Virus record (IMG/VR): IMGVR_UViG_3300005262_000003
Length of the DNA stretch: 43,109 nt
Direction: 5' to 3' (one strand)
DNA from: a virus
The notes beneath the pieces are model-generated. The model was not told the origin of the DNA. It worked only from the letters and a program-made list of their open reading frames with translations, and ran no database searches. Below are positions 7,763 to 40,419 of the stretch, in pieces (within the stretch, counting starts at the first letter, position 1; the number at the start of each line of letters is the position of its first letter). Made by a program: the position numbers and the translations under genes.

Positions 7763-8416
7763 TTACTGAACTTGGATGCTTGACGGGCAACTACCGACGA
7801 ACGTCCGCCAGAATGTCCTGCCAGCATAGCTGTACTCACAGTTCCAGCCGGACTGGTAGGTAACCGTTTGCACCTGCGTTTGTTTTCCTGTCCAGTATGC
7901 AGTCGCGGCCACCTGCAGGGGAGTCGGCGCTACTGAAGCAACCGGAGGAATCGTTGACACTCTGGGAGTAATCGGAGTGTAAGTCAACGGTTGAGGCTGA
8001 GACGCCTGGTTTGCCTGCATTAACTGAAGCGCAAGCGCCGTTCGCGCACGTTGATCAGCTTGCTGTTGCGCTGCAATTTGTTGAGCAATCGCTGTAATTC
8101 TTGCTCGTTTGTCCCGCTGCCTGAACTCAAACTCCTCTTTCGTTATAGATGCGTTTTCGTATTGCTGCGCATCCCACTGCATTTGGTTAATGACCTGTAT
8201 GATCTGCGGGGAAGTTCCGATAGCCAGATGTCTTTGATATAAACCGCTGTAATACACCGACCATTTAACTGCCCCATTTTCAGCCAGAGGCTTATTTGTT
8301 TCTATATAGCTTCGAAGCTCAACTGCTTTTTGGTCCGACTGGGACTGCTGCAACTGATTAGCGCAACCCGCGACGAGTAAACCGAGCGCCGCGATAAAAT
8401 ATTTTCGGATACTCAT
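7763..8416 (-). CDS. Lipoprotein, 217 aa, low G+C, unknown function (candidate superinfection-exclusion or defence factor)
   Basis: Internal ATG 8416 gives MSIRKYFIAALGLLVAGC (lipobox LVAGC). Followed by a Q-rich helical middle, a Pro-rich linker, and a C-terminal two-Cys domain. Sampled 60-nt windows are about 40-48% G+C. Confidence 0.8.
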   Translation of the reverse strand: MSIRKYFIAALGLLVAGCANQLQQSQSDQKAVELRSYIETNKPLAENGAVKWSVYYSGLYQRHLAIGTSPQIIQVINQMQWDAQQYENASITKEEFEFRQRDKRARITAIAQQIAAQQQADQRARTALALQLMQANQASQPQPLTYTPITPRVSTIPPVASVAPTPLQVAATAYWTGKQTQVQTVTYQSGWNCEYSYAGRTFWRTFVGSCPSSIQVQ

Positions 8417-8439
8417 ATTGTCTAAGAAATCAGTCGTGT

Positions 8440-8715
8440 TTAAAAGGGAAGTTCCTGCTCCGCGAATACAGCTTCGTTCCATTCGATATCACCAAGCGAT
8501 AGCAATTCGAGCAGATAAGGCATAGCATCAAATTCTGCCGCTGCACGTGCGTTATTCCAAGCTGTGTCATCCCGCGCCACCAGCATGACCGGCAACTGGA
8601 ACTTCATCTGCAGCTCTGCCACCAACGGGCCAGCAACATCCCAAGCCAGCTGGCGCCGCTCTACCAAGACTACCGCCATGCGCACGCCGCGCAGGCGCTG
8701 AATGGAATGCAACAT
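8440..8715 (-). CDS. Hypothetical 91-aa protein translationally coupled to cI
   Basis: ATG 8715-8713 overlaps the cI stop 8717-8715 (TGATG). Product MLHSIQRLRGVRMAVVLVERRQLAWDVAGPLVAELQMKF... I recognise no family. Confidence 0.65.
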   Translation of the reverse strand: MLHSIQRLRGVRMAVVLVERRQLAWDVAGPLVAELQMKFQLPVMLVARDDTAWNNARAAAEFDAMPYLLELLSLGDIEWNEAVFAEQELPF

Positions 8716-9491
8716 CAAAATACTTCCGTCTCTCTTTTCACTACTCGACCAATAATTTGTGACGTATCTCCCGCGAAGGATTGCCGGTAATAACGTCGCT
8801 GATCCACATTGTCCGAAACTAGCCACCATCTTCCTGCATCACGCGTCAATCGTTTGATTGCCGGCTCTCCTTCGTAATTCACTGCGTAAACTGCACCAGA
8901 AACGGGCTTTGTGTCTGCCGTGTTAATAATGACCAGGTCGCCATCGTAAAACGTCGGCTCCATGCTTTCGCCGCGCACTCTGATTGCAATTAACTTGTCC
9001 CGACTATAGCCATGGCGCTCGATCCATTCGGTTGGTACTGTCGTTGACGACCCATCATACGGCTCGGGCTCAACCTCGAAGCCGCTAAGACCAGCCGTCA
9101 GCCGCAGCCGCACCTTTGGAATAATGGTGAGCCGCGGATCATCGCCGTCTGCTCCCTCGACACGCATGTAGCTGCCTGGCTTCAACCCCGCAAGGGAACC
9201 CTGAGTCGGCGACTCCACCTTCTCGGCCACCTGATCGACGACCTGCATCAGCCGCGGACTGATGAAGCGCGGATCCGCTTCGATGACGTTGCAAATGGCC
9301 AACAGGGCCTGAAGGTTCAGCGGAATGATCGCGCGCATGTACTGGCTGACCGCAGCTTGCGTCCCAAGGCCAGCCTCGGCGGCAAGCCAAGTCTGTGTCG
9401 CTCCATCGTGCGCGGCGCGATAGCTCTCCCAGGCCGCTTTCAGCCGATCAGCCTCGCCTCTTTCCTCAGCAGTAAGTTCCCGTCGTTTCAT
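8715..9491 (-). CDS. cI: CI-type prophage repressor (N-terminal HTH plus C-terminal S24 LexA-like autopeptidase)
   Basis: The C-terminus has GESMEPTFYDGDLVII (catalytic Ser) and AIKRL (Lys). A candidate Ala-Gly cleavage site lies in LTAGLSG. Divergent from cro. Confidence 0.9.
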   Translation of the reverse strand: MKRRELTAEERGEADRLKAAWESYRAAHDGATQTWLAAEAGLGTQAAVSQYMRAIIPLNLQALLAICNVIEADPRFISPRLMQVVDQVAEKVESPTQGSLAGLKPGSYMRVEGADGDDPRLTIIPKVRLRLTAGLSGFEVEPEPYDGSSTTVPTEWIERHGYSRDKLIAIRVRGESMEPTFYDGDLVIINTADTKPVSGAVYAVNYEGEPAIKRLTRDAGRWWLVSDNVDQRRYYRQSFAGDTSQIIGRVVKRETEVF

Positions 9492-9532: not shown

Positions 9533-9584
9533 TTGAAAAGCATTGCTGTTAATGTAGAATGCAGAAAAATAAGCAATGCTCTTA
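9533..9584 (+). promoter_or_regulatory. PR-like promoter with OR operators
   Basis: TTGAAA (9533-9538), 16-nt spacer, TAGAAT (9555-9560). Palindromic core AGCATTGCT sits in the spacer (9539-9547). ATAAGCAATGCTCTT lies at 9569-9583. Confidence 0.75.
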
Positions 9585-9600
9585 AATTTTAGGAACGCAC

Positions 9601-9855
9601 ATGACCCTTGACGAACACCTGAAGGAAGTCGGCCAAAGCCAAAGCGAGTTTGGCGCCGAGCTCCATCCTCCTGCCTCGCAAGCCCTGGTCAGCCAGTGGG
9701 TTCGCGGTATCACTCGCGTCACCCTTGATTACGCGCTGCAGATCGAGCGCGCTACCGAAGGCCGCGTTACGCCGCAGGACTGCGCTGACATGTTCCGTGA
9801 CCCGAACGCACGACGAGCTGCTTCACCACAGCAGCTGTCGAGCCAGTCGCAGTAA
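9601..9855 (+). CDS. cro: Cro/YdaS-like HTH regulator
   Basis: 84 aa. SQSEFGAELHPPASQALVSQWVRG HTH. AGGAA Shine-Dalgarno. First gene rightward of the operator region. Confidence 0.8.
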   Translation: MTLDEHLKEVGQSQSEFGAELHPPASQALVSQWVRGITRVTLDYALQIERATEGRVTPQDCADMFRDPNARRAASPQQLSSQSQ

Positions 9856-37446: not shown

Positions 37447-37863
37447 ATGAACCGTGAAAAACTCGCTGCACAGCTCACCATCGACGAGGGCCGGCGCGCG
37501 CTGGTCTACATCGACACCGTCGGCAAGCTGACGGGCGGCGTCGGCCGCAACCTGACCGACCGTCCTTTCTTCGACGACGAAATCGCCCTGATGCTCAAGA
37601 ACGATATCGATCTGGCGGAAAAGGATCTCGACCGCTTTATCCCGTGGTGGCGGCAACTGTCGGAGGCGCGCCAGAACGTGCTGGCCAACATGTGCTTCAA
37701 CCTGGGCATCAAGCGCCTGCTGCTCTTCGTGAACATGCTGGACCACGCGCGCGCCGGCCGCTACACCGAGGCGGCCGCCGAGATGCTGGATTCGAAATGG
37801 GCCAAGCAGGTCGGCGATCGCGCCCGCCGCCTGGCCGAACTCATGCGTAAAGGAGAATTTTGA
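37447..37863 (+). CDS. Endolysin, T4-lysozyme-like (GH24)
   Basis: LTIDEGRRALVYIDTVGKLTGGVGRNL carries the E...D...T catalytic triad spacing of GH24 lysozymes. Confidence 0.9.
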   Translation: MNREKLAAQLTIDEGRRALVYIDTVGKLTGGVGRNLTDRPFFDDEIALMLKNDIDLAEKDLDRFIPWWRQLSEARQNVLANMCFNLGIKRLLLFVNMLDHARAGRYTEAAAEMLDSKWAKQVGDRARRLAELMRKGEF

Positions 37864-38390
37864 TGGACCCGATTACGATCGCCATGGCGCTTGCGCAGTT
37901 CGCGCCGTCCCTGGTCAAACTCCTCACCGGCAGCGATAAGGCGGCGGACGTCGCCGGCAAGGTCGTCGACATTGCCAAGACCGTCACCGGCGCCGACACC
38001 GGCGAGGCCGCGCTGGCGGCCATCCAGGCCGATCCGAACAAGGTGCTGGAGTTCCGCCAGGCCGTAGGCGCCCAGCAGGTCGATCTCGAGAAGGCTTATC
38101 TGGCAGACCGCGTCGACGCACGCGCGCACGACACGGAAGTGCGCAAGATGAATGCCGGCCACAACTACCGCGCCGACATGGCCGTGATGGCAGTCGTCGT
38201 CGGGCTGATTGCCTGCCTCTATGTGCTGGTCCAGTTCAAGGGCCAGATGCCGGGCGAAGCGGTCGGCATCCTGTCCACCATTGCCGGCATTCTGGGGTCC
38301 TGTCTGAAGGATTATTTCGCCTTCGAATTCGGCAGCTCGCGCAGCTCGCGCGAGAAGGACGAGACGATCAGCAAGATGGCAGGGGTGTGA
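37860..38390 (+). CDS. Holin, three-TM type (GTA-holin-like)
   Basis: ATGA-coupled to the endolysin. N-terminus DPITIAMALAQFAPSLVKLL plus two C-terminal TM segments. IQADPNKVLEFRQA motif recalled from the 3TM holin family. Confidence 0.65.
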   Translation: MMDPITIAMALAQFAPSLVKLLTGSDKAADVAGKVVDIAKTVTGADTGEAALAAIQADPNKVLEFRQAVGAQQVDLEKAYLADRVDARAHDTEVRKMNAGHNYRADMAVMAVVVGLIACLYVLVQFKGQMPGEAVGILSTIAGILGSCLKDYFAFEFGSSRSSREKDETISKMAGV

Positions 38391-38533
38391 TGGACTTCCA
38401 CGTCATCACGCCGACCGAGCAGCAGCTCGTCATGCGGACGACGGAAGGCGGGTACGTGCACCAGGTGTGGCCGGCGCCTCCGTCGTCGCTCCCGGCCGAC
38501 GCCGCGCCGGCTCAGCCAGCACCCGGCAGATGA
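38390..38533 (+). CDS. Mini-ORF, 47 aa, coupled to the holin
   Basis: TGATG overlap. Hand translation MDFHVITPTEQQLVMRTTEGGYVHQVWPAPPSSLPADAAPAQPAPGR. Very high GC3. No TM or lipobox. Confidence 0.45.
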   Translation: MDFHVITPTEQQLVMRTTEGGYVHQVWPAPPSSLPADAAPAQPAPGR

Positions 38534-38648
38534 GCGCGAAGCCCGCGCCGTGGTCGGCCAGGTAGGCGGCCGCGGCGCGCACGTCGCCCATGGTCAGCGC
38601 GTGGTCGACTGCGGCGGCAAGTTCGGTGTTCGGGCGGCTCAGTTCCAT
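38430..38648 (-). CDS. Hypothetical small protein, 72 aa (80 aa from GTG 38672)
   Basis: MELSRPNTELAAAVDHALTMGDVRAAAAYLADHGAGFALICRVL... Divergent from 38737-39033 across the LexA box. The 3' third overlaps the 47-aa ORF convergently. Confidence 0.45.
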   Translation of the reverse strand: MELSRPNTELAAAVDHALTMGDVRAAAAYLADHGAGFALICRVLAEPARRRPGATTEAPATPGARTRLPSSA

Positions 38649-38702
38649 GCGCCGATCATACGGTAGGCGCACCGCCGGCAGGTTGCGGCTGGTCAGCCGT
38701 TA

Positions 38703-38722
38703 TACTGTACGCTCATACAGTA
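38703..38722. promoter_or_regulatory. LexA (SOS) box
   Basis: TACTGTACGCTCATACAGTA fits CTGT-N8-ACAG, with perfect 8-bp arms ATACTGTA / TACAGTAT (38702-38709, 38716-38723). Confidence 0.75.
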
Positions 38723-38736
38723 TTTTCAACATCAGC

Positions 38737-39033
38737 ATGTACGGAAAAGTGAAGCGCCTGCGCGACCATGGGCGGCGCCTGTCGAACCGCGAGATCAACC
38801 AGATGCCAGCCGTCGAAGGCGCGCTCACGCTCGCCGCAGTGCGGTCAACCTACGTCCTTCAGGTCCGGCGGCACGATTCCCAGGTCGGGCCAGGGTTGCT
38901 GCCGGACCTCTACGAAGCCCGCCTCATCGCCATGCATACGGGCGGAATGCTATTCAGGGGCGAGGAGCGGCCGCAGGGCGACGACGGCCCGGCGTACGTG
39001 CAGGAGTGGTCGGTGATGATCGAGCCAATGTAA
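38737..39033 (+). CDS. Hypothetical protein, 98 aa, downstream of the LexA box
   Basis: Internal ATG of ORF 38590-39033, 14 nt after the box. About 85% G/C at third positions by hand count. No recognisable Shine-Dalgarno. Confidence 0.55.
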   Translation: MYGKVKRLRDHGRRLSNREINQMPAVEGALTLAAVRSTYVLQVRRHDSQVGPGLLPDLYEARLIAMHTGGMLFRGEERPQGDDGPAYVQEWSVMIEPM

Positions 39034-39176
39034 AATCGCGTACCGGGCGACGGCCCTATTTCTTTGGAAGATGCCCGTAAGGGCCAAGCATTCATGCGGG
39101 TTTCAGCGGCGTCGATCTTCCAAAGAATTCATCCGCACCTTTAGGAAAATCAATTACTTAGATGCTTTTGGGCATC

Positions 39177-39224
39177 GGATTGTGATTCCTGTTGTCGTGG
39201 GTTCGAGTCCCATCAGCCACCCCA
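39177..39224 (+). other. attP core: 3' portion of a tRNA-His gene (anticodon loop through CCA), not an intact tRNA
   Basis: GGATTGTGATTCCTGTTGTCGTGGGTTCGAGTCCCATCAGCCACCCCA matches the tRNA-His 3' half (GTG anticodon, C73 discriminator, CCA). No complementary 5' acceptor strand (GTGGCTG) lies upstream. Confidence 0.8.
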
Positions 39225-39243
39225 AGAATTCAGCAATAAGATC

Positions 39244-39284
39244 AAAGGGTTACGAGCTTCGCGCCGTAGCCCTTTAATTTTTTT
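39244..39284 (+). terminator. Intrinsic terminator downstream of the tRNA fragment
   Basis: 11-bp stem aaagggttacg / cgtagcccttt (one G-U pair), 10-nt loop, then aattttttt. Confidence 0.65.
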
Positions 39285-39318
39285 GGAAGATGAAATTCCA
39301 AATTTTGGAAGATCATTG

Positions 39319-40419
39319 TTACGCGGTCGCCTTGGCCGTCTTCTTCTTCCGCCTGTCGTACACCTGCCGCACCATGCGATCCGTGCTGTGTCCGGTAGCG
39401 TTCGTGATGTCTTTATCCCCCTCTTCTACCCGGTCCGTGACAGCCGCCGGCCGCATGTCCTTCAACGTGAACCGCGCGAACTCGATCCCTTCTTTTTCCG
39501 CCTTCTTCCGCGCGTGCTCCATCAACCGGCGCAGGTTCGTGTTCCAGCCGCTGGTCGTGTAGGGTTGCCCCTCACTGTTGCCGAAAACATACATGCTGGT
39601 CGTGCGCTGCAGGGACAGTGCCTCGCTCATGACCGCGCGCAGCTCGTCCGACCACTCGATCACCTTGAACTTTTGCACACTTCCCTTCTTCCGCTTGCCG
39701 ACCGGCATTTCGACCCCCTGCTCCGTGATCGCCTGGCGCGTGATTTTCCGCATCTCGTCCGGACGGCTCACCGTCAGGTAGGCCGCGCGCAAGCACAGCG
39801 CCGCCACCACGTACATCCCGCCGCGCTCCCGCGCCACGCGCACGACCAGGTCGAGCTCGGTCGACGTCACATAGCGGGTGTCCGGCGTCGTCTTGTTGTA
39901 CTTGATGTCGCGGCAGGGGTTCGTCTCCAGCACACCCTTACGGCGGCCGAACTCCAGCACAGCCGACAGCAGCGCGATTTCCTTGTTCGCCTTCGCCGGC
40001 GCGCCTTCAGCGGCCCGGCCGTCCAGATACTTATAGATGTGCACCGGCTTGATGACCGCCGGCTTCACCTTGCCGAATGTCTTCAGCAGGCGCTTTGCCT
40101 CGTTGTGCTCGTTCTCGTCCAGGGTGCTGTCGGCCTTGCGTTCCTCGCTGTCGCGCGGCAAGGCGCGCTGCCACGCGAAGTAGCGGCGGAACAGCGCATC
40201 GGTCTCGCCGGTCTCCACCTGGACGCCGTTCAGCTCGTTGGCGCGCTCGATCGCCTCGGTGCGGATCCGCGCGCACGCTTCCTTGTCGCTGGTGGCGGCC
40301 GTCAAGCGGAACGCCCACTTCCCGTCCGGCAGCTTGTAGCCGTAGCTCACCTTGAACTTACCGAGGCGCTCGTACAGGCGGAACGGCATGCCGTCCGGTG
40401 ATTTTCTTCTTCCGATCAT
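39319..40419 (-). CDS. int: Tyrosine integrase
   Basis: 366 aa. C-terminal ATGHSTDRMVRQVYDRR (H-x-x-R ... Y). Adjacent to attP and xis. Confidence 0.9.
   Translation of the reverse strand: MIGRRKSPDGMPFRLYERLGKFKVSYGYKLPDGKWAFRLTAATSDKEACARIRTEAIERANELNGVQVETGETDALFRRYFAWQRALPRDSEERKADSTLDENEHNEAKRLLKTFGKVKPAVIKPVHIYKYLDGRAAEGAPAKANKEIALLSAVLEFGRRKGVLETNPCRDIKYNKTTPDTRYVTSTELDLVVRVARERGGMYVVAALCLRAAYLTVSRPDEMRKITRQAITEQGVEMPVGKRKKGSVQKFKVIEWSDELRAVMSEALSLQRTTSMYVFGNSEGQPYTTSGWNTNLRRLMEHARKKAEKEGIEFARFTLKDMRPAAVTDRVEEGDKDITNATGHSTDRMVRQVYDRRKKKTAKATA

Follow-up and report, generated by a model that had tools for sequence, protein, structure and literature searches.

A putative LexA-operated cargo gene from an uncharacterised family of small beta-proteins beside attP in a temperate phage

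Results

A LexA-type operator 14 nucleotides before the P98 gene

The 43,109-nucleotide stretch of viral DNA studied here (IMG/VR record IMGVR_UViG_3300005262_000003; "the window" below means this whole stretch) represents a temperate phage with 64% G+C, in which two small divergent genes are separated by a LexA-type (SOS) operator. The operator, TACTGTACGCTCATACAGTA, occupies positions 38703-38722 (strand not applicable). The plus-strand gene at 38737-39033 encodes a 98-amino-acid protein, P98, which we read as SOS-controlled cargo, and the minus-strand gene at 38430-38648 encodes a 72-amino-acid, three-helix protein, M72. The box stands 14 nucleotides (nt) from the ATG of P98 and 54 nt from the ATG of M72. 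An earlier note on this DNA, made from its letters alone, had located the box and both open reading frames (ORFs) at these same positions, with the box 14 nt before the plus-strand ATG, and had assigned the module to a cargo slot between the lysis genes and attP. All of this stands: an endolysin gene (37447-37863, library match) lies on one side, and a tRNA-fragment att site and an integrase gene lie on the other.

At 12 of 12 arm positions, TACTGTACGCTCATACAGTA agrees with the 20-bp consensus TACTGT(AT)4ACAGTA. The earlier note credited the site with perfect 8-bp arms, which is correct if the frame is shifted to the full palindrome at 38702-38723 (ATACTGTA-N6-TACAGTAT) and incorrect within the 20-mer, where the perfect arms measure 7 bp (TACTGTA/TACAGTA). 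Scoring with a position weight matrix (PWM), made from 27 Escherichia coli LexA operators known from the literature, gave 21.7 bits versus a median of 22.6 bits for those operators; this falls in the operator range and bears out the description of a near-perfect LexA box. The heterology index is about 6.9. The second-best PWM position in the 43-kb window reaches 12.5 bits, TACTGTACGCTCATACAGTA is the only LexA-type site in the window, and none of 200 shuffled windows attained its score. The bare core CTGT-N8-ACAG, which is the SOS box of most Betaproteobacteria as it is of Gammaproteobacteria (PMC6595937), matches once in the window and at least once in 26 of 100 shuffles. The bare core is thus weak evidence, whereas the full 20-mer is strong evidence. 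Judged by its sequence, including the conservation of its arms in relatives, the palindrome at 38703-38722 is beyond chance and is a LexA operator of the functional type.

The putative -10 element of P98 is TATACT at 38701-38706 on the plus strand, which overlaps the left arm of the operator. The same hexamer is found directly left of CTGT in all relatives with a LexA box, and in two of them (L094 and L102; L numbers designate compared loci) it is extended to TGaTATACT. Relative to a palindrome farther upstream, it has the position of the TGnTACACT -10 element of relatives without a box, and it is by this comparison that we infer its role. Between operator and ATG is a 14-nt leader (38723-38736, plus strand), part of a box-leader-ATG cassette. 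The same spacing from box to ATG is found before a 115-amino-acid paralogue of P98 (L170, L174, and L176), before phage imuA (L165), and before the P98 homologue of phage Medea1. A consensus sigma-70 promoter scan of 38300-39350 returned no promoter and no -35/-10 pair.

Control of P98 by the phage repressor CI was also considered and was rejected. The candidate CI operator motif AGCAWTGCT, derived from the cI-cro repeats, is perfect at 9539, 9572, and 7666, and no copy lies near P98 even when one mismatch is allowed.

P98 belongs to a widespread uncharacterised family

P98 is a genuine gene, as is its minus-strand neighbor treated below. A search of 5.8 billion proteins yielded 79 homologues of P98, nearly all of 96 to 99 amino acids and with identities down to 51% among those aligned. 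Depending on the alignment, 16 to 20 residues are invariant, and the G+C content at third codon positions (GC3) is 0.84. The signature of the family includes MYGKVKRLR...G.R and GEERPQG..GPAYVQEW; K6, R9, and R78 are invariant, and R14 and W91 are nearly so. A profile search of 1.84 billion representative sequences extended the family to 235 clusters at 50% identity, almost all of them stand-alone proteins of about 100 amino acids, and the longer members contained no informative fused domain.

Structure prediction, which the earlier note had proposed, gave a confident all-beta AlphaFold2 model for P98 (predicted local distance difference test score of 92) and a model of three helices with a disordered tail for M72. 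When the P98 model was compared by Foldseek with the PDB, only weak matches to Ran-binding (PH-like) domains were obtained (best E value of 1.6e-2; template modeling scores of 0.52 to 0.58), and a comparison with BFVD gave nothing. Searching the PDB with the P98 and M72 sequences turned up nothing of use, and neither protein had a match in Pfam, NCBIfam, or PADLOC. Among the PHROGs, P98 matched phrog_5560, a family of unknown function, with an E value of 2.9e-4 (residues 9-92 against positions 2-86 of the 90-position profile), and the phrog_5560 members from phages PG1 and pAN were tied to P98 by hhalign with a probability of 95%. A tblastn search of P98 against plasmids gave no match. The family to which P98 belongs consists of uncharacterised, predicted all-beta proteins of about 100 amino acids and occurs on temperate tailed phages, on Pf-type inoviruses, and on plasmids of Beta- and Gammaproteobacteria.

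LexA boxes recur within the family

About 120 loci with P98 homologues were compared, and class counts were taken from the 103 loci with an intact start. In class A (86 loci), the gene is preceded by an extended -10 element (TGnTACACT or TGnTAAACT) that in most cases ends exactly 6 nt short of the ATG, with no Shine-Dalgarno sequence, and for this reason the mRNA is probably leaderless. Class A promoters look constitutive, and some of these loci have no M72 partner. Class B (11 loci, including the window) has the LexA box. Class C (3 loci) has TATACT 6 nt before the ATG and lies next to a BrnT/BrnA pair with direct repeats of its own, and the remaining 3 loci show none of the three patterns. 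The class B intergenic region is some 23 to 29 nt longer than that of class A, and the box lies between the -10 position and the ATG.

Beyond the window, the box is present in L012-L018, L010, L094, and L102. Within the window's own clade (L012-L017), the box arms are invariant while spacer and flanks vary, and L018 has CTGT-N8-CCAG. In a neighbor-joining tree of the P98 proteins, the loci with a box occupy at least three separate positions, namely those of the window clade, of L010, and of L094/L102, nested among class A.

The homologues in Pseudomonas phages carry the box consistently, as it was found at 17 of the 17 Medea1-like and Pf-like loci that were checked. The Medea1 gene comes after the lysis genes, with the box TACTGTATCTACATACAGTA 14 nt ahead of its start; that of PfAC02b, a Pf-type inovirus, comes after the repressor gene, with the box CACTGTTTATTTAAACAGTT 7 nt ahead of its start. 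Further IMG/VR relatives of the Medea1 and PfAC02b proteins have a LexA box 6 to 10 nt before the ATG in 15 of 15 cases. In phages PG1 and vB_PstS-pAN, the homologue is situated between the lysis genes and attP, and 3 nt separate it from a preceding gene for SRAP (SOS response-associated peptidase; Pfam, 163 bits); in PG1 it has no LexA box. A literature search turned up no described function for the Pf-phage homologue. Taken over the family, LexA boxes are found in at least six lineages from two bacterial classes.

Two further observations were made in the intergenic regions of relatives. In L005 (5363-5918, minus strand), and also in L020 and L023, a BrnT/BrnA pair (Pfam, 84 and 74 bits) stands in place of the M72-type gene, and the intergenic region that it shares with P98 contains two direct repeats, TTGTATATACGATAAA.

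The second observation is a further conserved CTGT-N8-ACAG (consensus TGCTGTTGATCTATACAGCT), present in relatives and absent from the window, with LexA-matrix scores of 16 to 24 bits. Its distance to the 3' end of a tRNA-Pro(GGG) gene or attP fragment is exactly 25 nt in all 20 distinct loci (L005 6336-6355, L034 4337-4356, L017 4923-4942, and 17 others). The palindrome ATATTAGATGnnCATCTAATAT flanks it, joined in many loci by a T-run. The corresponding hairpin, UUACAGC/GCUGUA, is 98% paired, and its changes are mostly one-sided transitions. We regard this att-adjacent element as a possible LexA site, integrase core site, or component of a structured tRNA trailer or small RNA.

The same SOS slot holds imuA in sister phages

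M-type loci were found by an IMG/VR search with the M72 alignment. In seven fetched loci, two of which (L147 and L165) are one contig, the M-type gene faces a stand-alone imuA gene: L165 (188-925, minus strand), L147, L150, L152, L153, L156, and L163, all from Massilia phages. The identity of the phage ImuA is given by NCBIfam NF033429 (212 bits versus a cut-off of 150). Its promoter, TTGATATACTGTACACGCATACAGTATTTTTGAGGTATCA-ATG, is almost identical to that of the window, with 14 nt from box to ATG, and a tRNA-fragment att site follows imuA in these loci. The closest plasmid relative of the phage imuA is on the Massilia putida plasmid NZ_CP019036, where a 14-nt interval separates TACTGTACATTCATACAGTA from the ATG of a 115-amino-acid protein, whose gene is directly followed by a stand-alone imuA (L170 5483-6202).

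This 115-amino-acid protein (MYVKACRIYNDGG...IRGEER...GWYCEIV) is a remote relative of P98. It scored 10 bits against the profile hidden Markov model (HMM) of 190 P98-family sequences, corresponding to about p = 2e-5 for one sequence, and hhalign aligned it with P98 over 102 columns with an E value of 4e-4. In 3 of the 3 contexts in which this paralogue was found, a LexA box lies 14 nt before the ATG. One of these is a plasmid-like contig with a relaxase gene nearby, on which the box is the perfect consensus, TACTGTATATATATACAGTA; another is a phage laid out like the window, in the order lysis genes, M-type gene (minus), box, 14 nt, cargo (plus), integrase (minus). A search with the paralogue against plasmids matched only its own plasmid. 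The imuA-imuB-dnaE2 cassettes of Burkholderia and Delftia plasmids have the same type of box, as exemplified by CACTGTACAAACATACAGTATTTT before imuA of Burkholderia cenocepacia pBCK56.

On comparison of these loci, the slot next to the M72 gene holds P98, a P98 paralogue, or imuA, exchangeably. The stand-alone imuA genes occur with no imuB or dnaE2, in the attP-proximal slot or on a plasmid, and all of them behind LexA boxes. A third kind of cargo in the same slot is seen in L164 (about 1330-1500, on the reverse strand of the locus), where the LexA box TATACTGTATTTTCATACAGTA faces an M72-type gene and drives an unrelated 76-amino-acid protein (MKPALTREDLIAIRDRNKGQEDVV...). Some M-type loci have no cargo, and M72 is then the last gene of the prophage (L166).

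The recurrence of the box bears on the possibility that the palindrome is not a LexA site at all and is instead a chance repeat, a hairpin of the 5' untranslated region, or the operator of another protein such as M72. The frequency of the bare core in shuffled windows and the location of the relatives' other conserved CTGT-N8-ACAG in a structured tRNA-Pro trailer are compatible with that view. However, the score of the 20-mer was never reached in shuffles, the match reaches into the TA flanks, and the consensus recurs with different spacers before unrelated cargos in different bacterial classes. Moreover, a Massilia replicon has the same box ahead of imuA, which is a classical SOS gene. We therefore give a non-LexA origin hardly any credence.

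The position beside attP is a classical cargo slot, and P98 might accordingly be a protein of lysogenic conversion, defence, or superinfection exclusion, with LexA setting only the timing or the cost of its expression and with no relation to damage processing. Most relatives have constitutive-looking promoters, as a gene expressed in the lysogen would have, the PfAC02b gene lies beside a Gabija system, and the BrnT/BrnA pair holds the neighboring position in L005, L020, and L023. Against this, PADLOC gave no match, LexA boxes occur in at least six lineages of two classes, and the sharing of a slot with imuA and of an operon with imuA or SRAP points to the DNA-damage response specifically. A role of this kind is in our judgment unlikely.

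M72 is a conserved neighbor with a probable promoter of its own

M72 has 41 homologues, which supports the minus-strand ORF as a genuine gene as well. They share a conserved core of about 50 amino acids, DRPNTEL..AVD.AL...AAAFLADHGAGFALICRVLAEP.RRR, followed by a variable tail. In the AlphaFold2 model, helices span residues 4-19, 23-32, and 37-45, and the tail past the conserved RRR motif is disordered. No fold match was found by Foldseek, neither a ribbon-helix-helix (RHH) nor a CI-like fold was seen, and there was no family match.

The predicted -10 element of M72 is TATGAT, at 38660-38655 on the minus strand and 6 nt from the ATG, an assignment based on spacing in relatives; the M-type genes that were read have a TAnnnT hexamer exactly 6 nt upstream of the start codon. 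With a -10 element so close to the start codon, the M72 mRNA is probably leaderless. The M72 start is about 64 nt away from the center of the LexA box, which thereby falls upstream of and outside the core promoter, and LexA control of M72, which the earlier note's reading of the spacer implied, is for that reason unlikely. The note had pointed to TTGAAA-N19-TATAAC as a possible minus-strand promoter with the box in its spacer. That sequence is present, but a promoter function, other than perhaps as a second promoter, is unlikely in view of a 19-nt spacer, outside the usual range of 16 to 18 nt, the silence of the promoter scan, and the conserved proximal -10 element.

Upstream of this promoter, the window has a degenerate palindrome, TTGCGGCTGGTCAG (TTGC...TCAG, 38683-38696, strand not applicable), centered 41.5 nt upstream of the M72 ATG. 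It is the counterpart of TTGA-N6-TCAA, found with zero or one mismatch in 38 distinct relatives, in which it is centered at -25.5 from the P98 ATG and at -40.5 from the M ATG and is often the exact FNR-type consensus TTGAT-N4-ATCAA. It accompanies the M gene whatever the cargo, and also when there is none, and it is at the position of a class II activator site of the probably leaderless M72-type promoter. Its ligand may be M72 itself or a host protein of the CRP/FNR family.

The constancy of this arrangement might suggest that P98 and M72 are an SOS-triggered pair of the toxin-antitoxin kind, in which M72 neutralises P98 or represses its gene until damage occurs. The M72-type gene is divergent from P98 in at least 50 loci, its disordered C-terminal tail resembles that of labile antitoxins, and there is a palindrome between the two genes. 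However, in L007-type and L022-type loci, as well as on plasmids and in Pseudomonas phages, P98 has a strong -10 element but no M72-type partner, and M72-type genes are found with ImuA, with another cargo (the 76-amino-acid protein), or with nothing. Type II toxin-antitoxin pairs are normally co-transcribed, and P98 and M72 are divergent. P98 also lacks a match to any toxin family and is predicted to be a soluble beta-protein. Such a pairing is, on balance, very improbable, and M72 as a dedicated regulator or antitoxin of P98 was rejected, each gene being found without the other. M72 is a gene with a predicted promoter of its own, the conserved last gene at the prophage end, probably not LexA-controlled, and not an obligatory partner of P98.

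The immunity region and P98

As the earlier note recognised, the phage has a CI repressor with an S24 self-cleavage domain (8715-9491, minus strand; Peptidase_S24, 70 bits), beside a cro-like gene (9601-9855, plus strand). The note called a second, direct LexA input unexpected for that reason. The S24 CI is indeed present, but the surprise was overstated, since Lemire et al. 2011 (PMC3121763) describe for Salmonella Fels-1 a cleavable CI-type repressor together with an antirepressor gene.

That precedent invites the reading of P98 as a LexA-controlled antirepressor, like 186 Tum, N15 AntC, or Gifsy GfoA/GftA, acting against the repressor of its own phage or of a co-resident prophage. P98 is small and is encoded behind a LexA box by a temperate phage, small antirepressors under LexA control are known, Fels-1 combines a cleavable repressor with one that acts in trans (PMC3121763), and the repressor gene of the Pf-like phage is immediately followed by the homologue. 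However, P98 has no match to antirepressor, Tum, or DinI families in Pfam or PHROGs, and the type of P98 is independent of the type of CI. In a phage with a CI that is 83% identical, P98 is only 51% identical; a phage with a CI that is 91% identical has the M72 gene and no P98; and in L014, P98 is 95% identical and the CI was not detected as related by search. Most relatives look constitutive and have no LexA box, and some of these also lack M72, which is hard to square with stable lysogeny for an antirepressor. Members of the family are found on plasmids and in operons with imuA or SRAP, and the window's CI has a cleavage domain of its own. The antirepressors and SOS-induced toxins that the earlier note offered as precedents probably do not describe this gene, for which no family match, no tracking of CI, plasmid members, and 86 non-LexA promoters among 103 all speak against them. 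An antirepressor role we consider quite improbable.

Setting in the phage

We take the 3' fragment of a tRNA at about 39177-39231 to be the attP core; it is also the sole DNA match of the window to known phages (two Burkholderia phages, at this fragment only). It is flanked by TTTGGAAGAT repeats at 39060-39072, 39115-39127 (inverted), 39281-39291, and 39303-39313, which are probably the arm-type integrase binding sites of attP. A tyrosine integrase gene follows at 39319-40419 on the minus strand, with a DUF4224 Xis-like gene upstream of it. All matches of P98 in cellular genomes are from Massilia or close Oxalobacteraceae relatives, and the host of the phage is therefore most likely Massilia. 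In L061, P98 is 99% identical, yet the att site is of the tRNA-Pro type, so that the cargo module has evidently moved between integration modules.

The lysis cassette is closed by a small ORF at 38390-38533 on the plus strand (MDFHVITPTEQQLVMRTTEGG...), antisense to and overlapping the variable 3' tail of M72. Its N-terminal 25 or so residues are conserved in many relatives by tblastn, and it belongs to no known family. In the immunity region, a 239-amino-acid ORF just downstream of cI (7763-8482, minus strand; no Pfam match) has a lipoprotein-like N terminus (...LLVAGCANQ) and a Q-rich middle. It failed the GC3 coding filter, and it may be a lysogenic-conversion gene. An Rfam scan of 38300-39400 found no RNA family.

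Discussion

In the explanation that we favor, host LexA would occupy 38703-38722 in an undamaged lysogen and would cover the TATACT -10 element together with the transcription start, leaving P98 off. DNA damage would then give rise to RecA filaments, LexA would cleave itself, and P98 would be transcribed, alongside the self-cleavage of the S24 CI but without depending on it. The promoter unit, TATACTGT-N8-ACAGTATTT followed by 14 nt and the ATG, would be a portable SOS cassette that matches the Burkholderiales imuA promoters in type. The product would act on the DNA-damage machinery of the host, along the axis of RecA, ImuA, and translesion synthesis or lesion processing, and not on the phage repressor. 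Repression of P98 by LexA is very probable from the sequence comparisons. That P98 is an SOS-response effector aimed at the host is more tentative, a proposal for which we see somewhat less than an even case. The explanation taken as a whole, a LexA-operated P98 in a portable cassette with a host-directed product and a separate M72, we hold with moderate confidence.

Our reasons for placing the target in the host are that P98 shares its slot or operon with imuA and SRAP, that its conservation far exceeds that of CI, with which it does not co-vary, that the candidate CI operator AGCAWTGCT is not found near it, and that the family is also present on plasmids.

Several points weigh against this explanation. 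The LexA matrix rests on E. coli sites. A bare CTGT-N8-ACAG core is not diagnostic by itself in these phages, because the att-adjacent copy may be an RNA or integrase element. Among the close, Massilia-type relatives, 86 of 103 have no LexA box, and the Massilia branch of the P98 family is not inherently under SOS control. The window has no convincing -35 element or Shine-Dalgarno sequence for P98, and for this reason the promoter assignment is comparative only. The weak structural match to Ran-binding, PH-like domains gives no functional lead. Finally, the links of P98 to ImuA and SRAP are guilt by association, with direct adjacency in one plasmid operon (imuA) and one phage lineage (SRAP), and the homology of the 115-amino-acid protein is remote.

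The regulation is ordinary in kind, and the interest of the locus lies in an uncharacterised, repeatedly LexA-wired family and in an exchangeable SOS slot. The LexA-controlled prophage genes characterised so far are antirepressors, DinI homologues, and toxins. If P98 acts on RecA, ImuA, or translesion synthesis, it would represent a new way for mobile elements to tune mutagenesis and the timing of the SOS response, with a bearing on stress-induced evolution and, by way of the Pf phages, on Pseudomonas aeruginosa. A bolder reading, possible but in our view doubtful, is that P98 founds a widespread LexA-regulated family that works with the RecA-like ImuA or with SRAP, through which mobile elements reprogram SOS, mutagenesis, or cell-cycle arrest of the host. 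P98 might then be an adaptor analogous to ImuB-C, and the box-leader-ATG unit beside M72 would be a dedicated, exchangeable slot for SOS cargo at the prophage end.

Comparison with known systems

In its layout, the locus resembles the immI region of P22, where mnt is divergent from arc-ant, and the PRM/PR region of lambda, in that a small gene is divergent from regulated cargo across a short intergenic region with a palindrome. In lambda, OR2 lies about 41 nt upstream of the leaderless cI mRNA, and the palindrome found some 41 nt upstream of the probably leaderless M72 has a comparable geometry, which by analogy also recalls a class II site of the CRP/FNR type. Unlike those systems, M72 has no match to an RHH or CI-like fold, it is not tied to one cargo, and any DNA binding by it is putative.

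The DinI homologues of prophages and PsiB of conjugative plasmids are, like P98, small phage or plasmid proteins wired to SOS. P98 has no homology to them (no Pfam match), and we offer it as a hypothesis that P98 acts on RecA. The ImuB-C domain is described as a small, mostly-beta domain with a conserved C-terminal Trp and conserved basic residues, and it also occurs stand-alone in operons with LexA, SRAP, and translesion polymerases (Aravind, Anand and Iyer 2013, PMC3765255). By this description only, P98 is similar, being predicted all-beta, with W91 and basic residues conserved and with SRAP and imuA as neighbors. A comparison of the 190-sequence P98 profile with three ImuB C termini, a set of low power without GSU0042, gave an hhalign probability of 0.1% and no HMM match, and we do not file P98 with ImuB-C, given the lack of profile similarity to those three C termini.

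Closer in regulation are the dinI-antirepressor operons of the Gifsy phages, tum of 186, and antC of N15, all of which place an SOS-inducible small protein behind a LexA operator in a temperate phage (PMC3121763). As at those loci, the P98 unit has its own promoter, in the manner of a moron. P98 differs in that it has no sequence relationship to their products and does not co-vary with CI, in that the window's CI is self-cleaving, and in that the P98 family is also found on plasmids and beside imuA or SRAP.

Closest in sequence are the imuA(-imuB-dnaE2) promoters of Burkholderiales. The cargo of the window is an uncharacterised 98-amino-acid protein and not imuA, imuB, or dnaE2, and its slot lies by attP. 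The operator and its geometry are nevertheless near-identical, as seen from TACTGTACGCTCATACAGTATTTT in the window and CACTGTACAAACATACAGTATTTT before imuA of pBCK56, from the M. putida plasmid with its TACTGTACATTCATACAGTATTT, 14 nt, and ATG, and from sister phages in which the same slot holds imuA.

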